Part shown: piece by piece, positions 4,594 through 38,072 of the stretch
Position numbering within the stretch: position 1 is the first letter of the stretch
How the letters are laid out: every line of letters begins with the position of its first letter
Origin: Elusimicrobiaceae bacterium
GTDB taxonomy: Bacteria; Elusimicrobiota; Elusimicrobia; Elusimicrobiales; Elusimicrobiaceae
Direction of reading: 5' to 3'
Length of the DNA stretch: 45,357 nucleotides
NCBI GenBank assembly: GCA_045612945.1
Contig: JAZLAA010000143.1
Location: forward strand, 1 to 45,357
Made by a program: the position numbers and the translations under genes
The notes under the pieces: generated by a model
Seen by the model: the letters and a program-made list of their open reading frames with translations, nothing else
Databases searched by the model: none
Told to the model about the DNA's origin: nothing

Positions 4594-6928
<2,335 letters not shown>

Positions 6929-6931
6929 AAT

Positions 6932-7867
6932 TTACCGGTTTTCTGCTTTTAGGGTAGCTACATAATCCGCTATACCAGCTTCTAGGGTATAATCCGGCGT
7001 GTAACCTAGCTTTTCCTTGGATTTAGTAATATCTGCCTGTGTTTTAAGCTGGAAGAACGGATACGGATTATCTATATATTCCGGTTCTAAATGAGTGCCC
7101 ATTTCTTTATTTAGGCAGGCAATAATTTCGTTATAATCCCGCGGAACGCCCGTAGCCGCATTATAAACGCCGTTCTCTTTGCCATTGGTCAAGGCACACA
7201 GGTTAATTTTTACAATATCTTTTACATAGACAAAATCACGTTGTTGCTCTCCATGTTTAAAAACACGGGGGCGCTTGCCTTCCTTCATCTGTAAATATAA
7301 CTGATACACCATACTGGCCATTTTCCCCTTGTAATACTCACCGGGACCATAAACATTAAAATAGCGAAGGCCGATAATGGTCATGTCATTATTATCTTCT
7401 GCAAATTGGCGAGCTACATTATCCATAATGGCTTTAGAAAAACCATATACATTTTCCGGGTGAGTGGGCTGTGTTTCCACGTTAGGAACCGGGCCGTTAC
7501 CGTAAGTAGCTGCGGAAGAAGCATAAATTACTTTTTTAATCCCGTTTTCGGCCGCAAAACCCAACAAATTTTTAAAAGCTTCTACGTTTTGCTCCATCAT
7601 GGCCCGTTGGTCCATGACGGTGGTATCGGTAATAGCAGCTTCATGGAAAATGGCATCAAAATACATATCACTGGGAATATAATTAAACAAGTCTGTGGTA
7701 ATTACATCCCCTTTAAAACCGATTAAATTTTTAAAATGCCCATTCTTTTGAAAATCATCCAACACGGTTACTTCGTGCCCTTGGGCCTCCAGCGTTTTGG
7801 CAATATTACTGCCGATAAAACCGGCCCCGCCTGTAACTAAGTATTTCTTTCTGTTTTTAGTTTCCAT
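6932..7867 (-). CDS. hldD: ADP-L-glycero-D-manno-heptose-6-epimerase (extended SDR)
   Basis: VTGGAGFIGSN, AITDTT, YASSAATYG, YGFSK (YxxxK), LRYFNVYGPGEYYKGKMASM, RDFVYVKD. Confidence 0.9.
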   Translation of the reverse strand: METKNRKKYLVTGGAGFIGSNIAKTLEAQGHEVTVLDDFQKNGHFKNLIGFKGDVITTDLFNYIPSDMYFDAIFHEAAITDTTVMDQRAMMEQNVEAFKNLLGFAAENGIKKVIYASSAATYGNGPVPNVETQPTHPENVYGFSKAIMDNVARQFAEDNNDMTIIGLRYFNVYGPGEYYKGKMASMVYQLYLQMKEGKRPRVFKHGEQQRDFVYVKDIVKINLCALTNGKENGVYNAATGVPRDYNEIIACLNKEMGTHLEPEYIDNPYPFFQLKTQADITKSKEKLGYTPDYTLEAGIADYVATLKAENR

Positions 7868-13435: not shown

Positions 13436-15952
13436 CTATTCGGCTTCTTCCTCTTCTTCGGCTTTGACTACCGGGGCAATACGGGCAATTTTATCTCCCT
13501 CTTCCATTTTGGCCAAGGTAACCCCTTGCGCGTTGCGCCCGACAGAGCGGATATCCCCGCAGCGCAGACGAATGGTCATGCCTTTTTCGGTAATAATCAT
13601 GAGGTCTTTGGTTTCGTCCACCAGTTTAATACCCACCACTTTTCCGTTGCGGGCGGAGGTTTTAATGGTAATCACCCCCATACCGCCACGGTGCTGGCGT
13701 TTGTATTCGCTAAACTCGGTGCGTTTGCCAAAGCCGTTTTCACAAACAGAGAGCACATCCGGCTGGGCTCCGTCGTTAGGGGCATGTTCCATACCTACCA
13801 CGATGTCTCCGTCTTCCAGACTAATGGCACGCACCCCGTGTGCCTGGCGGCCCATGGCGCGTACTTCGTTTTCATCAAAGCGGATGGATTTACCGTTTTG
13901 GGTAGCTACTAAAATATCGCTCTTGCCAAAGGTAAGTTGAGCACTAATCAGCACATCCCCTTCGTCTAAACCAATGGCAATAATCCCGCTGCGGCGGATG
14001 TTGGCAAATTCTTTGAGTGCCACGCGCTTAATGGTGCCCAAGCGCGTGCACAGCGTAAGGTAAGCCTGTTCACCAGCTTTGTCGGCCGAAGGATTAAAAT
14101 CCTCAATAGCTAAGGTAGAGGTTACCTTTTCCTCGCCAGTTAGTTGCAAGAGGTTCACCAAAGCCTTGCCCTTAGACATGCGGTTGCCTTCCGGGATTTC
14201 AAACGCACGTAAGGGGAACGCACGTCCGCGGTTGGTGAACATCAAAATCGTAGCGTGGGAAGACGTAATAAAGAGGTTTTCCATAAAGTCTTCCTCTTTG
14301 GTTTTGCTGCCAATAATGCCTTTCCCGCCGCGGTTTTGGCTGCGGTAGGTGGAAAGTGGAATACGTTTGGCATATCCGTCGTTAGAAATGGTGATGACCA
14401 CATCTTCTTTCTCAATGAAATCCTCCATAGAGAAATCTTCCATGTCCGGGCCAATTTTGGTGCGGCGCGGGTCATCAAAATCTTTCTTAAGCTGAGCCAG
14501 TTCTTCCACAATGATGTCTAAAATTTTCTGCGGTGAAGCCAAAATGGCTTGTAAATCCGCAATCAGTTTTAAGAGGTCTTTGCGTTCGTTTTCAATAGCT
14601 AACGCGGAGAGTTGCGTAAGCTGGTGTAAACGCATATCCAAAATAGCTTGAGCTTGTACTTCAGTAAGCGTAAAGCGCTTCATCAAGGTGAACTTGGCTT
14701 CCGTCGGGTCTTTGGCGTTGCGGATAATGGCTACTACTTCGTCCATATTGGCAATGGCCACGAGTAAACCATTTAAAATATGTTCGCGCTTTTGGGCTTT
14801 ATTTAAGTCAAACTTCGTGCGGTTGGTAACAATTTCTTGGCGGTGTTTGACGTATGCTTTCATTACTTCTTTAAGAGACAATACCCGCGGGCGCCCGTCC
14901 ACAATGGCTAGCATATTCACCGGGAAAGAGGTTTGCAACTGCGTGTGTTTGTAGAGGTGGTTTAACACAACCTGGGCGTTTCCGTCGCGTTTAATTTCAA
15001 TGACTAAACGCATCCCGCGCCGGTCCGACTCATCACGAATATCAGAAATATCTGTTATTTTTTTGTCGCGCACCAACCCAACAATGCTTTCAATCAGCGA
15101 AGTTTTGTTTACTTGGTACGGAATGGCTGTTACCACAATGGCTTGACGGCCGCCTTTGCGTTCTTCAATTTCCGTATCAGCCTGCACTTTTACGCTTCCG
15201 TGACCAGTTTCAAAGTACTCGTAAATGGCTTTCGTACCGCGGATGGTAGCCCCTGTGGGGAAATCCGGCCCTTTGATGATTTTCATCATCTCTTTTGTGG
15301 TAATATCCGGGTTTTTGATATAAGCAATAATCCCGTCACACACTTCGCCTAGGTTATGGGTAGGGATATTGGTTGCCATCCCTACGGCAATCCCGGCAGA
15401 ACCGTTAACGAGCAGTGCCGGTAACTTAGCAGGCAGTACGGAAGGTTCTAATAAAGAACCGTCATAGTTGGGAATCATTTTGACGGTATCTTTATCCAAA
15501 TCGTCTAACATCGTGTCGGAAATTTTTTCCAAGCGACATTCGGTATAACGCATGGCTGCGGCGGAATCCCCGTCAATAGAACCAAAGTTTCCCTGCCCGT
15601 CCACCAAAGGTTTGCGGATAGAAAAATCTTGTGCCAAACGTACGAGCGTATCATACACTGCCGTATCGCCGTGCGGGTGGTATTTCCCCAACACATCCCC
15701 CACCACACGGGCCGATTTCTTATATGGGCGGTTATATTTTAATCCCATTTCGTTCATAGAATAGAGTACACGGCGGTGCACGGGTTTTAAACCGTCGCGC
15801 ACATCCGGAAGAGCACGGCCGACAATTACGCTCATAGCATAGTCAATATAGTACGAGCGCATTTCGGTAGCAATATCACGCTCTTGAATATTGCCAAATA
15901 AATCCACATTTACCTGTACGTTTTGGGTTGGGTTATTTAATTCTTCACTCAT
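13436..15952 (-). CDS. gyrA: DNA gyrase subunit A
   Basis: [15 protein letters not shown] (catalytic Tyr), GyrA-box QNRGGKG. Confidence 0.99.
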
Positions 15953-15976
15953 GTTCAAAATCTCCTAGAAAAGTTC

Positions 15977-18469
<2,493 letters not shown>

Positions 18470-18477
18470 CTATTTTT

Positions 18478-18771
18478 TCAAATGATTTCAATTTGTTTAA
18501 TCCATGGTTTCTCAAAGTATTTATTAAGCTCTTTTATCATCTGTGCGCGTTTAGTAATTAATTCATTTTTAGCTACAGAAACTTTAACTTGCACATACAA
18601 TGTATCTTTACGCACCGACTGTAAATTCCAGAATGCAGCTTTTTTCCCAACTACTTTATCCCACACATAATCCAACACCATAAGCCGATTGAGTGTCTTA
18701 CTTAATGGGTGAAATGAATTCGCTAATTCTTGACTGGAACGCCACTCTTTCTTAGCCTGAATGTGTTTCAT
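18478..18771 (-). CDS. DUF721/DciA-like protein
   Basis: WDKVVG...TLYVQV...KNEL...MIKELN pattern; classic position between dnaN and gyrB. Confidence 0.75.
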   Translation of the reverse strand: MKHIQAKKEWRSSQELANSFHPLSKTLNRLMVLDYVWDKVVGKKAAFWNLQSVRKDTLYVQVKVSVAKNELITKRAQMIKELNKYFEKPWIKQIEII

Positions 18772-19880
18772 TAAGCTCTCATGGGCATAATGACATACTT
18801 AAACACAGTATCTTTCACCGGTTCTATAAGCACCGGCTGAGAAGCATTCACAAAAGAAAACGATACTTTTTCTTCTTCTACTGTTTTTAATACGTCAATA
18901 ATATACTGTGGTTTAAAGTTTGCCTCAAACAATTCCCCATTGTAAGAAACAGGAATTTCGTCGGTAAATTCCATATTTTGGGAATTAGAAGAAATCGTTA
19001 CACGGTTATTTTCCAGGGTATATTTTACCACACTTCCAAATTCGCCGGCACACAATGCAGCCCGACGGGTAGAAGCTAACAATTCTTTGGTAAATACCTC
19101 AAACTTAATAGTAGTTTTTGTAGGAATAACCTGCTTATAATTAGGAAAATTTCCCTCAATTAAACGCGAAATAAAGGTAGTATCTTTCATTTTAAAACCT
19201 ACTTGATTTACCGATACATACACACTAATACGCGTATCTTTATCCGGTTTAGCCAGTGAAATAAAACGCCCTAATTCCGTTAAAATCTTGGTAGGAATGA
19301 TAATTTTAAATTCATTTTTAGTCTGTAAAGCCGGCTGGGAAGCTACTGCCAAACGTCCACCGTCTGTAGCTACAATTTCAAAACTATCCGCCGTATTACT
19401 CCATAATAACCCATTTAAAATATAGCGTGTTTCTTGTGTAGAAGCCGAAAACACTGTTTTTTCAATCATTTTCTGTAGTAAAACCGGGTCCAATTCAATT
19501 CCTTCTTTTTGGTCTAATTCCGGGATAGCCGGATATTCCGATTTAGGCGTCCCCATAACCCAAAATTTACTTTTTCCGGATTTAATATGAAATTTATTAT
19601 TTTCATCACTATGAAGCGTAATTTCTTTATCATCTGCTAAGTTTTTAATAATATCTGTAAATTCTTTAAGCGGAACTGTAATACTTCCTTCTTCTTCTAT
19701 TTCGGCCGGTACAAAATGGACGGTAGCCATTTCCATATCCGTACGAACTAATTTTAGTTTACCTTTTTGCGTTTCTAACAGAAAATTATGCAAAATAGGT
19801 AACGTAGTTCTGGAAGACACACTGGAAGAAACTACCTGGATTCCTTCCAACAGAGTTGCTTTAGTAATATTTATTTTCAT
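18771..19880 (-). CDS. dnaN: DNA polymerase III beta sliding clamp
   Basis: TLPILHNFL, TRYILNG, VATDGGRL, SRLIEGNFPNY, YVIMPMR; alternative ATG at 19886. Confidence 0.98.
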   Translation of the reverse strand: MKINITKATLLEGIQVVSSSVSSRTTLPILHNFLLETQKGKLKLVRTDMEMATVHFVPAEIEEEGSITVPLKEFTDIIKNLADDKEITLHSDENNKFHIKSGKSKFWVMGTPKSEYPAIPELDQKEGIELDPVLLQKMIEKTVFSASTQETRYILNGLLWSNTADSFEIVATDGGRLAVASQPALQTKNEFKIIIPTKILTELGRFISLAKPDKDTRISVYVSVNQVGFKMKDTTFISRLIEGNFPNYKQVIPTKTTIKFEVFTKELLASTRRAALCAGEFGSVVKYTLENNRVTISSNSQNMEFTDEIPVSYNGELFEANFKPQYIIDVLKTVEEEKVSFSFVNASQPVLIEPVKDTVFKYVIMPMRA

Positions 19881-19886
19881 ATTCAT

Positions 19887-20054
19887 CCTTCATAATATAT
19901 CTTGTGGATTGTGTGGAAATTGTGTATTACGCAATACAACTTTTTCTACCGCCTCTGTGTATTTTTAATACTTTTTATCCACACTATACACATTCACAAA
20001 ACAAAATTGCTTTTTTTTGTTAGTTATTCACATCCTGTTTACGACTTTTCCACA
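19887..20054. promoter_or_regulatory. Candidate oriC: DnaA-box cluster between dnaA and dnaN
   Basis: Perfect TTATCCACA 19975-19983; TTATTCACA 20024-20032; TTTTCCACA 20046-20054; tandem degenerate boxes at 19903, 19912, 19921; AT-rich. Confidence 0.8.
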
Positions 20055-21367
20055 GCTTTAATATCTGTAATAATTTGGTTTATTTCTGCTGCAAAAAACG
20101 GGTCTGTATTTATTTTATCTTTCACTAAATCTCGCGCGTGTACCACAGTACTATGGTCTCTGTTAAATTCCCGGCCAATTTCCGGTTGAGATAAATCTGT
20201 AAGTTCTGTAGTTAAAAACATAGCAATTTGCCGCGGCCACGCAATTGATTGGGTTTTTTTCTTGGAGTTAAAATCTTCCATGCGTATATTGTAATGCTTT
20301 CCCACGATTTTCTTAATAGTATTAACAGATACTAAGGTATCTTGTTCGTTTACTAATAGGTCACTAAGTAATTCTTTAGCAATCGGAATGGTAGGGGTAA
20401 TGGTATGGGTGGTACAATATGCACGCAGACGGATAAGTGCCCCCTCTAGTTCGCGGATATTGGTTTGGATGCCCTCTGCTAAAAACGAAATAACATCATC
20501 ACCCACAATAAAGTTCATAGAATCTCTTTTTTGGCGTAAAATAGCAGTGCGGGCTTCCACATTAGGTCTTTTAATTTCTGTACTAATCCCACTGAGTAAG
20601 CGTGAAGAAAGCCTTTCATCCCATTCTAATTGTTGTGGAGAACGATCTGAAGAAAGAACAATTTGTTTTCCGCTTTCAAATAAAGAATTAAAAGTATAAA
20701 AGAAAGCTTCAGAACTTTGTTCTTTTCCTACTACAAACTGGATATCATCTACCAAAAAACAGTCTAAAAAACGGTATTTCTGGCGGAAATTATTATCTGT
20801 TTTTTGGCGTAATGATTCAATAAATTCATTTACAAATTCCTCACCGGACATATACTTTACTTTTGCCCGCGGGTTTTCACGCAGAATTTGGTTTCCAATG
20901 GCTTGTAATAAATGGGTTTTACCCAGCCCGGGGGCTGAATAGATTACCAGCGGATTGTTTTCCCGCGCCCCCAAATTGTGTGCCACGGCTTGGGCCGCCT
21001 TATAAGCAAAACGGTTGGAAGAAGACTCAATAAAATTATCAAACGTATAATTTGGGTTAAACAAAGAGAGGAGTTCACTAGTTGCCTGTGTGGCAACAGT
21101 TGGAACCGTTAAGGTAGAGGCTGGCTGAGGAGCTGGAGTTTCTACTCTGTATTCAACGGTAATTACGGTGCCTGTATGCTTTAAACATGCATCCACCAAT
21201 AATCGTTCATAACGTTCTTGAATAGTTTTTCCCCATATTTCATTGGGTACGATAAGCGTACAAACCGTGCCTTCTAACGCAAAATTAACCGGTTTAAACC
21301 ATAATTCATAGGTTTCTTTTCCGATGGTTTGTTCTAATTCTGATAAAACTAAAGGGTTCACAATCAA
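20039..21367 (-). CDS. dnaA: Chromosomal replication initiator DnaA (TTG start)
   Basis: [53 protein letters not shown]. Confidence 0.98.
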
Positions 21368-23781: not shown

Positions 23782-23943
23782 ATGGTGAAATATGTTTGTG
23801 AAGTATGTGGTTACGTTTATGACCCCGCCGTGGGCGACCCGGATAACGGTATTGCAGCCGGCACCGCGTGGGAAGCGGTAAAAGAAGACTGGGTATGCCC
23901 GGTGTGTGGCGTAGGTAAAGATCAGTTTAAACCGGCCGCATAA
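23782..23943 (+). CDS. Rubredoxin (53 aa; absent from ORF track)
   Basis: Manual translation [53 protein letters not shown]; RBS AGGAG. Confidence 0.97.
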
Positions 23944-23963
23944 CGAAAGATATCGGTGTATTT

Positions 23964-23997
23964 AAACCGCCTTTTTTAAAGTAAGGGGCGGTTTTTT
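23964..23997 (+). terminator. Intrinsic terminator after rubredoxin
   Basis: AAACCGCC...GGCGGTTTTTT. Confidence 0.8.
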
Positions 23998-24003
23998 GTG
24001 TTC

Positions 24004-24032
24004 TTGAAAACTGATTGTTTTTTTATTATACT
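24004..24032 (+). promoter_or_regulatory. Sigma70-type promoter of pilin cassette 1
   Basis: TTGAAA-17 nt-TATACT; the -10 context TTATTATACTATAG is shared by all three cassettes. Confidence 0.75.
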
Positions 24033-24038
24033 ATAGGT

Positions 24039-24284
24039 ACAATTTAATCTGTTTTTGGAACCGTTTAAGAAACGGAGTGCTTACAAAAGTCCTCATTCCC
24101 TCCAAAAACAGTCGTGTTTAGGCACAAAACGGCGACGGCTGTTTTGTGCTCAGTGTTTGCCGTTCTTTATGAACGGCAGGCCACGGCTGTTCGTGTTGGG
24201 ACTGGGAATGAGGCTCAATGCACCGGCCGTTTTTCTATGGTTTCTCTAACAGGTAAGTTGAAATTAACCTAAAGGAGAAATCGT
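24039..24284 (+). ncRNA. Candidate structured leader RNA, copy 1 (unassigned family)
   Basis: Homologous to 29734-29991(-) and 37318-37577(+); covarying helices (see findings). Confidence 0.75.
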
Positions 24285-24346
24285 ATGACAAAGAACAATC
24301 GGGCGTTTACGCTCATAGAGTTGTTAGTAGTGGTGTTAATCGTCGG
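24242..24346 (+). repeat. 105-bp perfect repeat, inverted partner at 29672-29776
   Basis: Base-by-base identity over the leader 3' end, RBS and pilin N-terminus. Confidence 0.95.
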
Positions 24347-24761
24347 TATATTGGCCGCTGTGGCGTTGCCGCAATATACCAAAGCCGTGGAAAGAAGCCG
24401 CTTAACTGAGGTGTGGAGTAATTTGGGCAGTTTACGCCAAGCATTGGCAGTAGCTATTTTACAGTCCCCGAATAACTGGAGTGTAGAAGCGTTAGATGTA
24501 GGAATAAAATGCCAAGGAGGGTCTGGTTCAGCCTGTCTTTTGGAAAAATGTCCTTCCGGCCGCTGGAGCGGGTATCTCGGCAATGGGCAGTGTGCTTATG
24601 TCCTTAGCGACTACCCCTCTCCCACAAATCCAAGAGTATCTTTTCCGGGGTATTTCACTATCCCGGGCGGTAGTGAAAAATACATTGAGTTAATACTGGA
24701 TAACTCCGGTCGTAGCTGCAGTGGCGACGCCGCCACCTGCAAATACCTGGGTATTGAATAA
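24285..24761 (+). CDS. Type IV pilin-like protein (PilE-like) 1
   Basis: Class III signal RA|[24 protein letters not shown]; 6-Cys variable head. Confidence 0.93.
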
Positions 24762-24903
24762 CAAAAACCCCTTACTTTTTCCCCCTCTTTTAAAAGAGGG
24801 GGTTCTTATAGGGGCATTTTTAAAAAATCATTATTTTTTAAGCAAAATTTAAAGGCCCCGCCATTTGACAGGCCCCAAGACTTGTAGGGGCATAATCTAA
24901 CTT

Positions 24904-25809
24904 TTAAAGCATTTTGTGTTTCAAGCGGCTGGCCAAATTATCCAACTCATCCAACGAATGATAGTGAATAACTAGCTGGCCTTTTTTCATACTTTTGCCG
25001 TATTTTACTTCCACTTTGGTACCCAAAGCAGCCTGTAAATCGTTTTCAAAAGCAGTTACTTCTACCGGTTTAGTTGTTTTGACCGATTTTTTGATTGGGA
25101 ACATAGCCATTCGGGCGGCATCTTCCGCTTGGCGTACAGAAAGTTGGTGCGAACTGATTTTTTTGAATAAATCTGCTCTTTTTTGCTCGTCGGTTACCAT
25201 GAGTAACGCACGACCATGCCCCTCGCTAAGCGTTCCTTCCTGCAACGCTTGCTGAATTTCTTGCGGCAATTCTAACAAGCGCAAGGTATTGGAAATGGCC
25301 GCCTTAGACTTACCACAATAAGAGGCCAACTCTGTTTGCTTAATAAAAAACTTATTCATCAGATTGCGGTATCCCAGGGCAGTTTCAATCGGGTTTAAAT
25401 CCTCGCGCTGGATGTTTTCAATCAGTGCCAGGGCGCAAAGCTCTTGGTCGGTTAAGTGTTTGTGAACAATCGCATCAATTTCGCCCAGTCCAGCCAGTTG
25501 TGTAGCACGGAAACGCCGTTCCCCCACCACAATTTCGTATTTATCCAGCCCCGCATCATATACTACTACAATGGGCTGCGTAAGGCCGTGTTCCTTAATA
25601 GAAGCGGCTAATTCCTGCAGTTTTTCCTCATTAAATACGCGCCGCGGTTGGTAGCGGTTAGGTACAATTTTACTGACCTCTATTTTTTGCACGCTTACCG
25701 ACGTATTATTTTGTAACGCCTGAGCAGCTTCTTGCGTAGGTAATTCAGAAATTTCTTGGGTTTGTTTAATTAAGGCATCCAGTCCTTTCCCTAATGCTTG
25801 TCTGGCCAT
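24904..25809 (-). CDS. parB: Chromosome partitioning protein ParB (start revised to MARQALGKGL)
   Basis: LGKGLDAL, PNRYQPR, GERRFRA (CTPase motif), ENIQREDLNPIE, HTH. Confidence 0.97.
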   Translation of the reverse strand: MARQALGKGLDALIKQTQEISELPTQEAAQALQNNTSVSVQKIEVSKIVPNRYQPRRVFNEEKLQELAASIKEHGLTQPIVVVYDAGLDKYEIVVGERRFRATQLAGLGEIDAIVHKHLTDQELCALALIENIQREDLNPIETALGYRNLMNKFFIKQTELASYCGKSKAAISNTLRLLELPQEIQQALQEGTLSEGHGRALLMVTDEQKRADLFKKISSHQLSVRQAEDAARMAMFPIKKSVKTTKPVEVTAFENDLQAALGTKVEVKYGKSMKKGQLVIHYHSLDELDNLASRLKHKML

Positions 25810-25810
25810 A

Positions 25811-26644
25811 TTATCCTCCAAAATCGTAATTAAGCGGGGTATCGCCCGCCAGTTTAATGGCTTGGTAATCTTCTACCTTGGCCCCGCGGCGAGTTAAAAA
25901 CTCTACCGCCAATTTAATATAGGCTTCTGCCCCTCGGCAGGCCGGCTCGTAGTCAAAAATAGACTGCCCAAAACTGGGAGCTTCCGCCAAGCGGATGTTG
26001 CGGGGAATCGGTGTTTTATAAATTTTACTACCAAAAAAACGGCTTACTTCTTCGCGCACTTGTTTGGCTAAATTTAAATGGGCATCATACATTGTAAGTA
26101 CGCCGCCGTCCATTTGTAATTTAGGATGCAGAAATTGTTTAATTTTGTTAACCGTACCCATAAAATGGGCTAAACCTTCCATAGCATAGTATTCACATTG
26201 TACGGGAGTAATAACGCTATCGGCTGCCATCATAGCATTTAAGGTTAGCAACCCTAAAGATGGAGGACAATCTATAATGATGTACTTATACATAGCACGC
26301 AGGGGAGCCAAGGCATCTTTAAGACGGTTTTCACGTCCACGCACATTTACCAATTCAACCTCCGCTCCAGCCAAATCTTTACAAGCCGGAAGCACATCCA
26401 AAAACTCGTTAGCAGTTTGGCGTACCACTTGCTCAAAGGGAGCGGTTTGTGTAATTAAGTGATAGACGGATTTTTCGCCGTCTTGCACGGTCACACCCAG
26501 GCCGGAACCGGCGTTTCCCTGTGGGTCAAAATCTACTAATAAAACCTCTTGGTTTAAATAGGCCAACGCATAGGCCAAGTTAATGGAAGTAGTGGTTTTC
26601 CCCACCCCCCCTTTTTGATTTGCTACTACTACAATTTCTGCCAT
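25811..26644 (-). CDS. parA: Chromosome partitioning ATPase ParA/Soj
   Basis: NQKGGVGKTT, DPQGNA, IDCPPSLG, IPRNIRLAEAPSFG. Confidence 0.98.
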   Translation of the reverse strand: MAEIVVVANQKGGVGKTTTSINLAYALAYLNQEVLLVDFDPQGNAGSGLGVTVQDGEKSVYHLITQTAPFEQVVRQTANEFLDVLPACKDLAGAEVELVNVRGRENRLKDALAPLRAMYKYIIIDCPPSLGLLTLNAMMAADSVITPVQCEYYAMEGLAHFMGTVNKIKQFLHPKLQMDGGVLTMYDAHLNLAKQVREEVSRFFGSKIYKTPIPRNIRLAEAPSFGQSIFDYEPACRGAEAYIKLAVEFLTRRGAKVEDYQAIKLAGDTPLNYDFGG

Positions 26645-29262: not shown

Positions 29263-29733
29263 TTATTCAACCCCTAACTCGGCACAGATATTAGTAAGGT
29301 CTCCCCCGCTGGGAGCATTACACAATTTACCGTCATTTGATAAATATAACCCAAAAAATCCTTGCTCCGTATCACAACCGAAGCTAATCATAGGATTTGT
29401 AGCACTACCTATAGTCTCATAGTTACAATATGTACAAGCCGTTAACGGACACTTTGACAGCCAACAAAGCTTATCAGACACCGACGAACACTCAATGCTA
29501 ACATCTAAGTTTTGGGGATTCCAACTGCTTATCCCTCCCGTCTTGGTTTCCGGTGTGAGCATGGCTACCGCTGCGGCTTTATGTAAACTGCCCAGCGTAC
29601 TCCATACTTCGCTCATACGGCTTTTGCGTACTGCTTTTTGGTATTGCGGTACGGCCACGGCTGCCAATATGCCGACGATTAACACCACTACTAACAACTC
29701 TATGAGCGTAAACGCCCGATTGTTCTTTGTCAT
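29263..29733 (-). CDS. Type IV pilin-like protein (PilE-like) 2
   Basis: RA|[24 protein letters not shown]; 8-Cys variable head. Confidence 0.93.
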
Positions 29734-29776: not shown

Positions 29777-29991
29777 CCCATAGAAAACCGGCCGATACTG
29801 CCGAGAGAAATGAAGTGCCCCGACAACAACAGCCGTGGTTCGTCCCGCTACAACGGGACAAACACTCGGCACAAAGCTAACGGGTAATTAGTCCGTTTAC
29901 TTTGTGCCTAAATCGGCTGTTTTTGGTCTTCATTTCTGTTTCGGTTTCCCAAAACGCACCGTTATACGGTTCCAAAAACAGGTTAAATTGT
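29734..29991 (-). ncRNA. Candidate structured leader RNA, copy 2
   Basis: Same conserved blocks and helices as copies 1 and 3, read on the minus strand. Confidence 0.75.
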
Positions 29992-37290: not shown

Positions 37291-37311
37291 GCAGGGCAAG
37301 TTTATTATACT
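37283..37311 (+). promoter_or_regulatory. Sigma70-type promoter of pilin cassette 3
   Basis: TTGTTT-17 nt-TATACT. Confidence 0.65.
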
Positions 37312-37317
37312 ATAGTT

Positions 37318-37577
37318 ACAATTTGATCTGTTTTTGGAACCGTATGTAGAATACGGAGGACTTTTGATTCAAAAGTTTTATGCGAGTCCAAAGACAGCCG
37401 ATTTAGGCGCACGAAGGCGACGGCCGACGTGTGCCCAGTGTTTGCCTTTTCGCGTTATGCGAAATAGGCAAACCACGGCTGTTCCTCTAGGGTTCACTCG
37501 CATAGACTTTGGTGGTTCGGCCGTTTTTCATAGGTTCCTCTGGCAGTTAAATTGAAATTGAACAAAAGGAGTAACTT
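37318..37577 (+). ncRNA. Candidate structured leader RNA, copy 3
   Basis: Same conserved blocks and helices as copies 1 and 2. Confidence 0.75.
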
Positions 37578-38072
37578 ATGAAAAACCAAACAAGAGGGTT
37601 TACCCTCATAGAGTTGTTAGTAGTTGTGTTAATCGTTGGTATTTTAGCGGCAGTAGCGGTGCCGCAGTACCAAAAAGCCGTGGAAAAGAGCCGGTTAGCC
37701 GAAGTATGGGCCAACTTAAATGCCTTGCACAAAGCCGCCGCTACCATGGAAATGACCACAGGACTAGATGTGTGGGGAGAAGAAAACGCTCCCAAACTCA
37801 ACGAGTTGGATGTGGAGCTTACCGGATTTTCAAGTTGCCATTTGGTAAGCGGGAATTCAATGTGTTGGACAGCGTGCCCTTCCGTTGGATGGCGCAATTG
37901 CTTTTATGAAGTGGCCGGAACAGGTGTTAGGCGTTTTGGTTTTGATAAAAACAATAACTACATAGACCTTTCCATCTCGCGTGACGGCAAACGGTCTTGT
38001 AGTGCCAGCAAAGGTGTGTGCAATCAGCTAGGAATGTGTGCTGCTAACGAAACGTCATGTGATTTAGATTAA
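37578..38072 (+). CDS. Type IV pilin-like protein (PilE-like) 3
   Basis: RG|[24 protein letters not shown]; 8-Cys variable head. Confidence 0.93.
   Translation: MKNQTRGFTLIELLVVVLIVGILAAVAVPQYQKAVEKSRLAEVWANLNALHKAAATMEMTTGLDVWGEENAPKLNELDVELTGFSSCHLVSGNSMCWTACPSVGWRNCFYEVAGTGVRRFGFDKNNNYIDLSISRDGKRSCSASKGVCNQLGMCAANETSCDLD

Follow-up and report, generated by a model that had tools for sequence, protein, structure and literature searches.

An undescribed leader RNA with two predicted folds, a copy-specific helix and a palindromic loop upstream of type IV pilin-like genes in an Elusimicrobiaceae bacterium

The locus and the leader element

The window, that is the whole stretch of 45,357 nucleotides analysed here, belongs to a genome of 1.36 Mb in 204 contigs (89% complete, hereafter G000). 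It contains three leaders, each situated before a gene whose protein has 156-164 aa and the N-terminal motif of type IV pilins. Since dnaA-dnaN-dciA-gyrB-gyrA (13436-21367, minus strand) and parAB (24904-26644, minus strand) are also inside it, the window likely lies near the replication origin. Alignment of the three leaders confirmed the ordered blocks that an earlier note on this DNA had described as common to them. The variable long-range helix of copy 1 (CCTCATTCCC from 24091, GGGAATGAGG from 24204), the RACAGYCG/CGGCTGTT helix, the two junction hairpins and the 5' hairpin were all found where that note had placed them; helix H1, the terminator hairpin with its U-tract, the palindromic loop and the copy-specific nature of helix P4 were additional to it. 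The features are as follows.

23964-23994, plus strand: terminator of the upstream rubredoxin operon, insulating copy 1
24004-24032, plus strand: promoter of copy 1, sigma70-type, -35 TTGAAA, -10 TATACT
24039-24235, plus strand: leader RNA of copy 1, from the inferred start (ACAATTT) to the U-tract; predicted terminated product ~200 nt
24049-24058, plus strand: H1 5' strand of copy 1, pairing with 24102-24111 in the predicted OFF fold
24061-24090, plus strand: hairpins P2 and P3 within the H1 domain of copy 1
24091-24100, plus strand: P4 5' strand of copy 1, copy-specific barcode
24102-24114, plus strand: shared switch strand of copy 1, where the H1 3' strand overlaps the 5' strand of P5 (antiterminator)
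24121-24150, plus strand: P6 arm of copy 1, short, with GACG cap, non-palindromic (exception class, 4/102)
24155-24181, plus strand: P7 hairpin of copy 1, length and loop variable; served as control hairpin
24183-24235, plus strand: P8 terminator-like hairpin and U-tract of copy 1; its 5' strand doubles as P5 3' strand and its loop contains the P4 3' strand (24204-24213)
24239-24277, plus strand: 3' tail able to base-pair with the 5' end once read-through sets it free; Shine-Dalgarno sequence AAAGGAG
24285-24761, plus strand: type IV pilin-like gene 1 (PF07963, TIGR02532)
24781-24802, plus strand: terminator-like hairpin 3' of pilin gene 1
29263-29733, minus strand: type IV pilin-like gene 2
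29784-29991, minus strand: leader of copy 2 (-10 box 30003-29998; H1 29981-29972/29926-29917; P8 29836-29789)
29868-29908, minus strand: P6 of copy 2, 41-nt arm with 9-nt loop AC-UAAUUA-C, palindrome 29890-29885 (commonest class)
37318-37528, plus strand: leader of copy 3 (-10 box 37306-37311; H1 37328-37337/37388-37397; P8 from 37475)
37406-37435, plus strand: P6 of copy 3, GACG class
37578-38072, plus strand: type IV pilin-like gene 3

An iterated nhmmer profile (E<=1e-4) recovered 115 copies of the element, ~210 bases long as RNA, on 87 of the 204 contigs of G000, compared with the three known to the earlier note and many more than chance would give. Fifteen of the 115 were within 400 nt of a contig end; 102 were parsed for helix analysis and 13 were partial or unparsed. 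A copy was located at most 400 nt upstream of 101 of the 116 pilin-motif genes, and three further copies reach a pilin start at a contig end, giving 104 pilin leaders among the 115 copies. The association with pilin genes therefore extends genome-wide; the wording that the leader precedes every pilin held for these 101 genes and not for the other 15, two of which had a divergent form. Of leaders without a downstream pilin (G000 C50:6502, C114:1094, C59:16950, C116:8279, C12:2257), some precede short or membrane ORFs, and some may be stand-alone RNAs.

Copy 1 has terminators on both sides, and its sigma70-type promoter (TTGAAA-17-TATACT) points to the first base of the element, in agreement with the leader start near 24039 that had been proposed before. 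A conserved ACAATTT started 6 nt past the -10 box in 83 of the 84 copies in which the pattern was found, and this fixed spacing makes the first base of the element the likely RNA start. In class II leaders the start is shifted upstream, and RGGAGG stands 35-48 nt ahead of the core, without a start codon in 11 of 12 (G000 C40:8343, C13:865, C49:1587, C77:2827 and 8 more; also many relatives); this motif is possibly a ribosome-binding stabiliser of the 5' end, which we take to be comparable to STAB-SD. Upstream RGGAGG was absent in 84 of 85 class I copies and a conserved start codon was not seen in the copy alignment. A leader-peptide attenuator was rejected, as no conserved short ORF with Shine-Dalgarno sequence was found in the leader.

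The Rfam covariance models gave no match at gathering score across the window, chance-level matches only inside the element (best E 2.1) and none at E<=0.1 on six homologue loci. The phage and viral collections also contained no match, and no description turned up among the open-access papers listed in literature searches. Copy 2 folded with z = -6.8. Selection on the sense transcript, as the earlier note had proposed, was borne out by better folding of the sense than of the antisense strand in 101 of 102 copies and by 157 G.U vs 9 A.C in the long P6 stems. The data support the reading of the leader as an undescribed structured cis-regulatory RNA with selection on the sense strand.

Competing folds, copy-specific helix and palindromic loop

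Scanning a 40-copy alignment yielded three strongly paired helices, which overlap each other. H1 joins the 5' CUGUUUUUGG to CCAAAAACAG (99.7% of cells paired), with 8 of its 10 pairs varying solely by G.U-compatible changes; P5 joins AACAGYCG to CGGCUGUU (97.5%), and P8 joins ACGGCU to RGCCGU (97.1%). P8 was a hairpin of 46-53 nt in all 102 parsed copies, with a U-tract directly behind it (4-7 U among the 8 following nt), and lies upstream of the ribosome-binding site of the gene; its loop is longer than a simple terminator scanner allows and holds the 3' strand of P4. H1 and P8 are predicted to make up an OFF fold and P4 and P5 an ON fold, the two being mutually exclusive. The single fold seen previously corresponds to the ON state; the second state, with H1 and P8, had been overlooked.

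Two-sided covariation was weak within G000, where H1, P5 and P8 are nearly invariant; P5 taken alone showed little of it there, and its support comes from G.U-only variation and divergent homologues. Across 92 diverse homologues H1 was kept in 89, P5 in 90, P8 in 92 and P4 in 90, in an alignment fitted to the OFF fold and thus including H1 and P8, not P5 or P4. Several of the 92 had sequence altered jointly in all three competing helices. The divergent leader on G000 C90 was predicted to be ON when truncated and OFF when complete, and that on C167 OFF when complete.

Folding was computed as equilibrium predictions, which ignore kinetics and pseudoknots. The median energy gap between ON and OFF was 1.9 kcal/mol, with OFF lower in 77 and ON in 24 of 101 copies, and such nearly isoenergetic folds predict a transcription attenuator. 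When the P4 3' strand had just been made, 100 of 101 copies favoured P5. With the P4 5' strand kept unpaired in the computation, the gap rose to 10 kcal/mol and the P8 inner stem could nucleate in 55 copies instead of 1 (of 101). Of the 10 bases in each P4 strand, the OFF fold left about 7.7 (5' strand) and 7.0 (3' strand) unpaired. The P8 inner stem was weakly cognate-specific (own partner best in 10/102) because its 5' strand is U/G-rich. On these models the leader is very probably a transcription attenuator.

The end-closing helix between 5' and 3' ends described in the earlier note proved not to be universal: the cognate partner was best in 2 of 102 copies (cognate -11.7 vs non-cognate -10.5 kcal/mol), and many copies whose promoter is distant seem to lack its 3' strand. 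The P2 loop was mostly a GYRGA pentaloop in G000 (e.g. 37346-37350 in the window), GAAA-type in a second family and not conserved in forms that lack P6; it may dock on a P6-associated receptor. These P6-less forms constitute a subfamily of ~175 nt in which H1, P4, P5 and the terminator are kept with different sequence (G000 C90:291-472 and C167:7684-7852, both minus strand; L311, L314, L316, L323, L324, L325). They may preserve the core of the ancestral leader, possibly with members in other phyla as well.

P4 is a 10-bp helix, and the observation that it differs between copies yet remains complementary extended from the window to the genome, the own partner being best in 98 of 102 copies (mean -14.5 kcal/mol for cognate vs -3.9 for non-cognate pairing). 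No two of the 102 copies had identical P4, and four pairs had identical P6 stems. P4 was compared among 104 copies of G000, 29 of 102 in G008 and 27 of 112 in G100. Fifty within-genome pairs were at least 70% identical elsewhere; in none was P4 at least 80% alike, and their mean P4 identity was about 0.36 (background 0.32). Identity within a genome was never above 0.82, and the missing near-identical pairs may reflect assembly collapse of true duplicates. Among the closest six between-genome pairs P4 was identical in five, four of these before unrelated pilins. Cross-pairing of P4 below -9 kcal/mol was barely lower within than between loop classes (0.8% vs 1.2%), so that selection for orthogonality is not shown by this comparison.

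The P6 arm was bimodal in length (41-42 nt in 74 and 30-33 nt in 20 of 102 copies), P7 being free in length. A palindromic 4-mer was found at the P6 apex in 96 and a palindromic 6-mer in 71 of the 102 copies, compared with shuffle means of 47 and 11 (maxima 62 and 22) and with 43 and 14 in the P7 control hairpin. Of 167 distinct elements in relatives, where genomes may be counted twice, 12 were not cleanly folded; the other 155 had a palindromic 4-mer in 149 and 6-mer in 111 (P7: 44 and 6). The loop of the 41-nt form has 9 nt in the layout NN-hexamer-N. At a single register its inner four bases complement themselves in 62 of the 63 copies and in 20 of the 21 distinct loops; at the two flanking registers on either side this was so in none, and the full hexamer was self-complementary in 48 of 63. 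The palindrome axis lies half a base off the hairpin axis, and hence the palindrome is not an extension of the stem. At least 14 different hexamers occurred, including UAAUUA, UUAUAA, UCAUGA, UUGCAA, UUCGAA, GUGCAC, CUCGAG and UCUAGA. That self-complementarity is kept while the sequence changes points to self-pairing rather than a protein site. Kissing through the common hexamers, which are AU-rich, would be weak.

An intramolecular partner of the P6 loop was rejected (3/63 vs 183/3108). Twelve genomes (87-98% complete) had a single match; one of these matches was P6-less, and 10 of the other 11 retained a self-complementary loop, so that the partner would most simply be RNA of the same gene. 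Judged from these patterns, loop-loop dimers formed through P6 are likely to be real. Six of the 102 copies had no palindromic apex, including window copies 1 and 3, which leaves copy 2 as the only palindromic one in the window; together with the P6-less subfamily they indicate that kissing is not required for the core.

Two other roles of P6 were considered. A ruler between P6 and P8 is not supported, as P8 has nearly the same length in copies with a short P6 (48.3 nt) and with a long one (49.4 nt). Co-assembly of like pilins was rejected: the share with the same loop class was 7-11% at all thresholds vs 8.9% background, and loop class did not follow pilin similarity. One locus of a relative (L312, G164:C10:20254-20686) carries two tandem leaders with the same P4 5' strand before one gene; the second looks degenerate, and neither has a palindromic loop.

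Distribution and downstream genes

Model R1 matched 109 of 121 genomes of the family. In a sample of 151 genomes of the phylum it matched 56, namely G000, 44 of the 45 others in the family and 11 of 44 in the second family; the other families in the sample had no match. Among titled GTDB loci matching the element pattern, 103 of 112 name Elusimicrobiota. The four that were read in detail, of the nine with other labels, precede a pilin, a glycosyltransferase or genes as at the loci of this family, and the nine titles are probably loose. Copies per genome ranged from 1 to more than 100. R1 found 0-3 leaders in four genomes that have 56-125 N_methyl matches, and all 29 pilin loci read from these genomes were without one; pilin expansion thus does not need the leader.

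The 167 elements in relatives preceded a pilin motif in 95 cases, another ORF in 57 (about six of which are pilins missed by the pattern) and nothing assignable in 15. Thirty-seven non-pilin downstream proteins were scanned. Seventeen were envelope or glycan proteins (glycosyl-, acyl- and pyruvyl-transferases, a nucleotide-sugar dehydrogenase, outer-membrane barrels, TM2/bPH/TRL proteins), 10 were restriction or defence-like (DNA methylases, HsdR-N, GmrSD, PLD, SNF2, NERD-UvrD or dynamin-like), three were other and seven unassigned. The earlier reading as an undescribed cis-regulatory leader was retained, whereas its restriction to the control of pilin paralogues was dropped, with leaders of relatives also before glycosyltransferase, outer-membrane-protein and restriction-modification genes. 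These gene classes are commonly phase-variable (PMC11868660). Neither a reverse transcriptase nor a DAC domain was found in G000 (89% complete), which encodes a single NusG and three GGDEF proteins.

Proposed mechanism, rival explanations and known systems

We propose that an undisturbed nascent leader would form P4 and P5 before the terminator is complete and be read through, ON being the default cotranscriptional fold and P4 its hinge. The OFF fold would leave both P4 strands mostly unpaired. A released, terminated leader of ~200 nt could then kiss a nascent copy via the P6 palindrome, P6 being complete roughly 55 nt before the cis partner of P4 emerges, and its terminator loop could capture the P4 5' strand of that copy in trans. 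A fit would be limited to products of the same gene; cis P4 would then be blocked and the terminator would form. Further OFF product would be made, with positive feedback on the OFF state and specificity at the level of the gene. As cis P4 already gives ON, the trans contact would alter the outcome solely toward termination. Pilins, surface glycans, outer-membrane proteins and restriction systems would thereby come under a bet-hedging switch, with silencing that is self-sustaining, specific to the gene and occasionally escaped; simple positive feedback would require extra non-linearity for bistability. This full model, an attenuator triggered by RNA of the same gene and carrying a gene-specific ON/OFF memory, is tentative and somewhat more likely wrong than right. 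Its widest form, RNA-only epigenetic phase variation by ~100 orthogonal barcoded leaders per genome, each silencing its own gene, is doubtful.

Other readings were weighed on the same evidence. In an attenuator controlled by a protein or ligand, a factor (e.g. c-di-GMP or an RNA-binding protein) would stabilise the P5/P6/P7 junction and the dimer would be structural only. The three-way junction with its fairly conserved linkers, the GNRA/GYRGA-like P2 loop, the three GGDEF proteins and the need of P6-less forms for some trigger all suit such a factor, but no Rfam riboswitch matched, and only about four unpaired positions outside the switch strands were at least 90% conserved across the 92 homologues. 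A metabolite riboswitch in particular was disfavoured by these few invariant unpaired junction nucleotides, since nearly all invariant positions lie in switch helices. With one NusG, no conserved regulator gene or master locus behind the copies in low-copy genomes, and a gene-unique P4 that a common ligand cannot explain, control by such a factor is unlikely. The self-dimer might also act in the reverse direction, accumulated leader promoting read-through as a timer or dosage sensor. The palindrome, the barcode and the single-copy evidence speak for this too, as does the P4 5' strand, of which 7.7 of 10 nt are likewise exposed in the OFF fold; however, folding predicts ON from cis P4 already, which would make trans capture of the 3' strand redundant, and the target genes belong to known phase-variable classes (PMC11868660). 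We regard this direction as improbable.

Slightly less likely than control by a factor is a purely kinetic, stochastic attenuator with low expression, in which kissing would affect only RNA stability or turnover and P4 would drift neutrally. Near-isoenergetic states, the occurrence of P6-less and GACG-capped copies and the start-less AGGAGG of class II, which may protect the 5' end, are compatible with it. Against it, P4 stands at background identity even among copies 70-82% alike elsewhere, yet is identical between the closest copies of different genomes, and the length of the P6 arm and the loop register are tightly fixed. The high copy number, the same leader before different pilins in related genomes and the nearly identical tail and pilin start of copies 1 and 2 could also suggest that pilin cassettes are spread or shuffled by an element acting as DNA, such as a MITE, an attC-like or invertible site or an array of methylation sites. 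Against this stand the G.U over A.C bias and better folding of the sense strand, a promoter outside the paired region, a U-tract and Shine-Dalgarno sequence in RNA order, many different palindromes at one off-axis register, and the lack of a reverse transcriptase in G000 (89% complete) and of matches in phage or viral collections. The strand-symmetric terminal repeats or promoter between inverted repeats expected of a MITE, attC or invertible element were not found, and any DNA-level explanation is highly improbable.

By the tests run, the element is a member of none of the known systems with which it was compared. T-box and c-di-GMP riboswitch leaders are likewise long and structured, with terminator/antiterminator logic and many copies; they differ in that no Rfam match was obtained here, that UGGAACC stands at the 5' end, paired in H1, and that few unpaired bases are invariant. 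The HIV-1 dimer initiation loop has the layout 2+6+1, and the P6 loop resembles it in its palindromic hexamer, ~9-nt loop and fixed register (full 6 bp in 48/63, inner 4 bp in 62/63). The HIV-1 signal joins two identical RNAs by its palindromic loop and is linked to a conformational switch, as described in PMC5767303. The present element differs in being a bacterial mRNA leader with a terminator and at least 14 hexamers, and in having no packaging or reverse transcriptase. The closest system in its working is the pT181-type antisense-RNA attenuator, an antiterminator/terminator leader in which kissing-hairpin contact sets the fold and specificity can be orthogonal (PMC3753616); in the leader described here a kissing contact is likewise proposed to decide the fold. 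In the pT181 type the trigger is a separate antisense RNA, whereas the present loop is self-complementary and an antisense gene was not identified, with no minus-strand promoter-like site in 23900-24900 (copy 1 alone scanned). The copies here are also chromosomal, more than 100 in number, and each has its own P4 code. In Streptococcus gallolyticus, the pil1 pilus varies in phase via a premature terminator in the leader (PMC3894217). The purpose, pilus control through a leader terminator (predicted here), is similar; pil1 uses repeat slippage in a leader peptide, whereas a leader peptide or repeat tract was not found in our leaders. ARRPOF forms domain-swapped homodimers, and OLE, ROOL and GOLLD are further natural RNA multimers (PMC12990946). 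The leader shares with these a bacterial RNA of ~200-250 nt and kissing contacts (predicted here), and differs in having no Rfam match and in being a cis leader with a terminator switch and many barcoded copies. The element is new as a combination of features, and its mechanism is a model.

Phase variation is described as mutational, recombinational or based on DNA methylation (PMC11868660). If the proposed model were true, a self-recognising RNA attenuator would be a further mechanism, by which ON/OFF states are remembered and switched without DNA change, methylation or regulator protein. It would explain how a 1.4-Mb gut bacterium manages more than 100 pilin paralogues, and non-cognate kissing between identical loops would possibly add competition between paralogues. 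Should dimerisation not control termination, the element would still be a transcription attenuator. Even without the memory model, there remains an RNA family not listed so far, in which a terminator switch is combined with a DIS-like dimer loop and a helix specific to each copy; its natural variants number in the hundreds and are a ready library of orthogonal RNA regulators.

Two observations concern the region between leader and gene. In copies 1 and 2 the leader tail and pilin start are nearly identical over ~110 nt (24227-24341, plus strand; 29791-29680, minus strand) and P4 and P6 differ, which may be a sign of recent gene conversion between cassettes. Elsewhere, separate palindromic inserts divide the leader tail from the start of the pilin gene or lie within the sequence for the pilin N-terminus, in frame (G000 C135 ~6950-7050, C79 ~5330-5450, C138, C9, C74, C158, C115 and C80; relatives L038, L053 and L003). 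Several of them carry an ATTCCC-N13-GGGAAT core, and they presumably resemble REP/RPE and neisserial dRS3 repeats.
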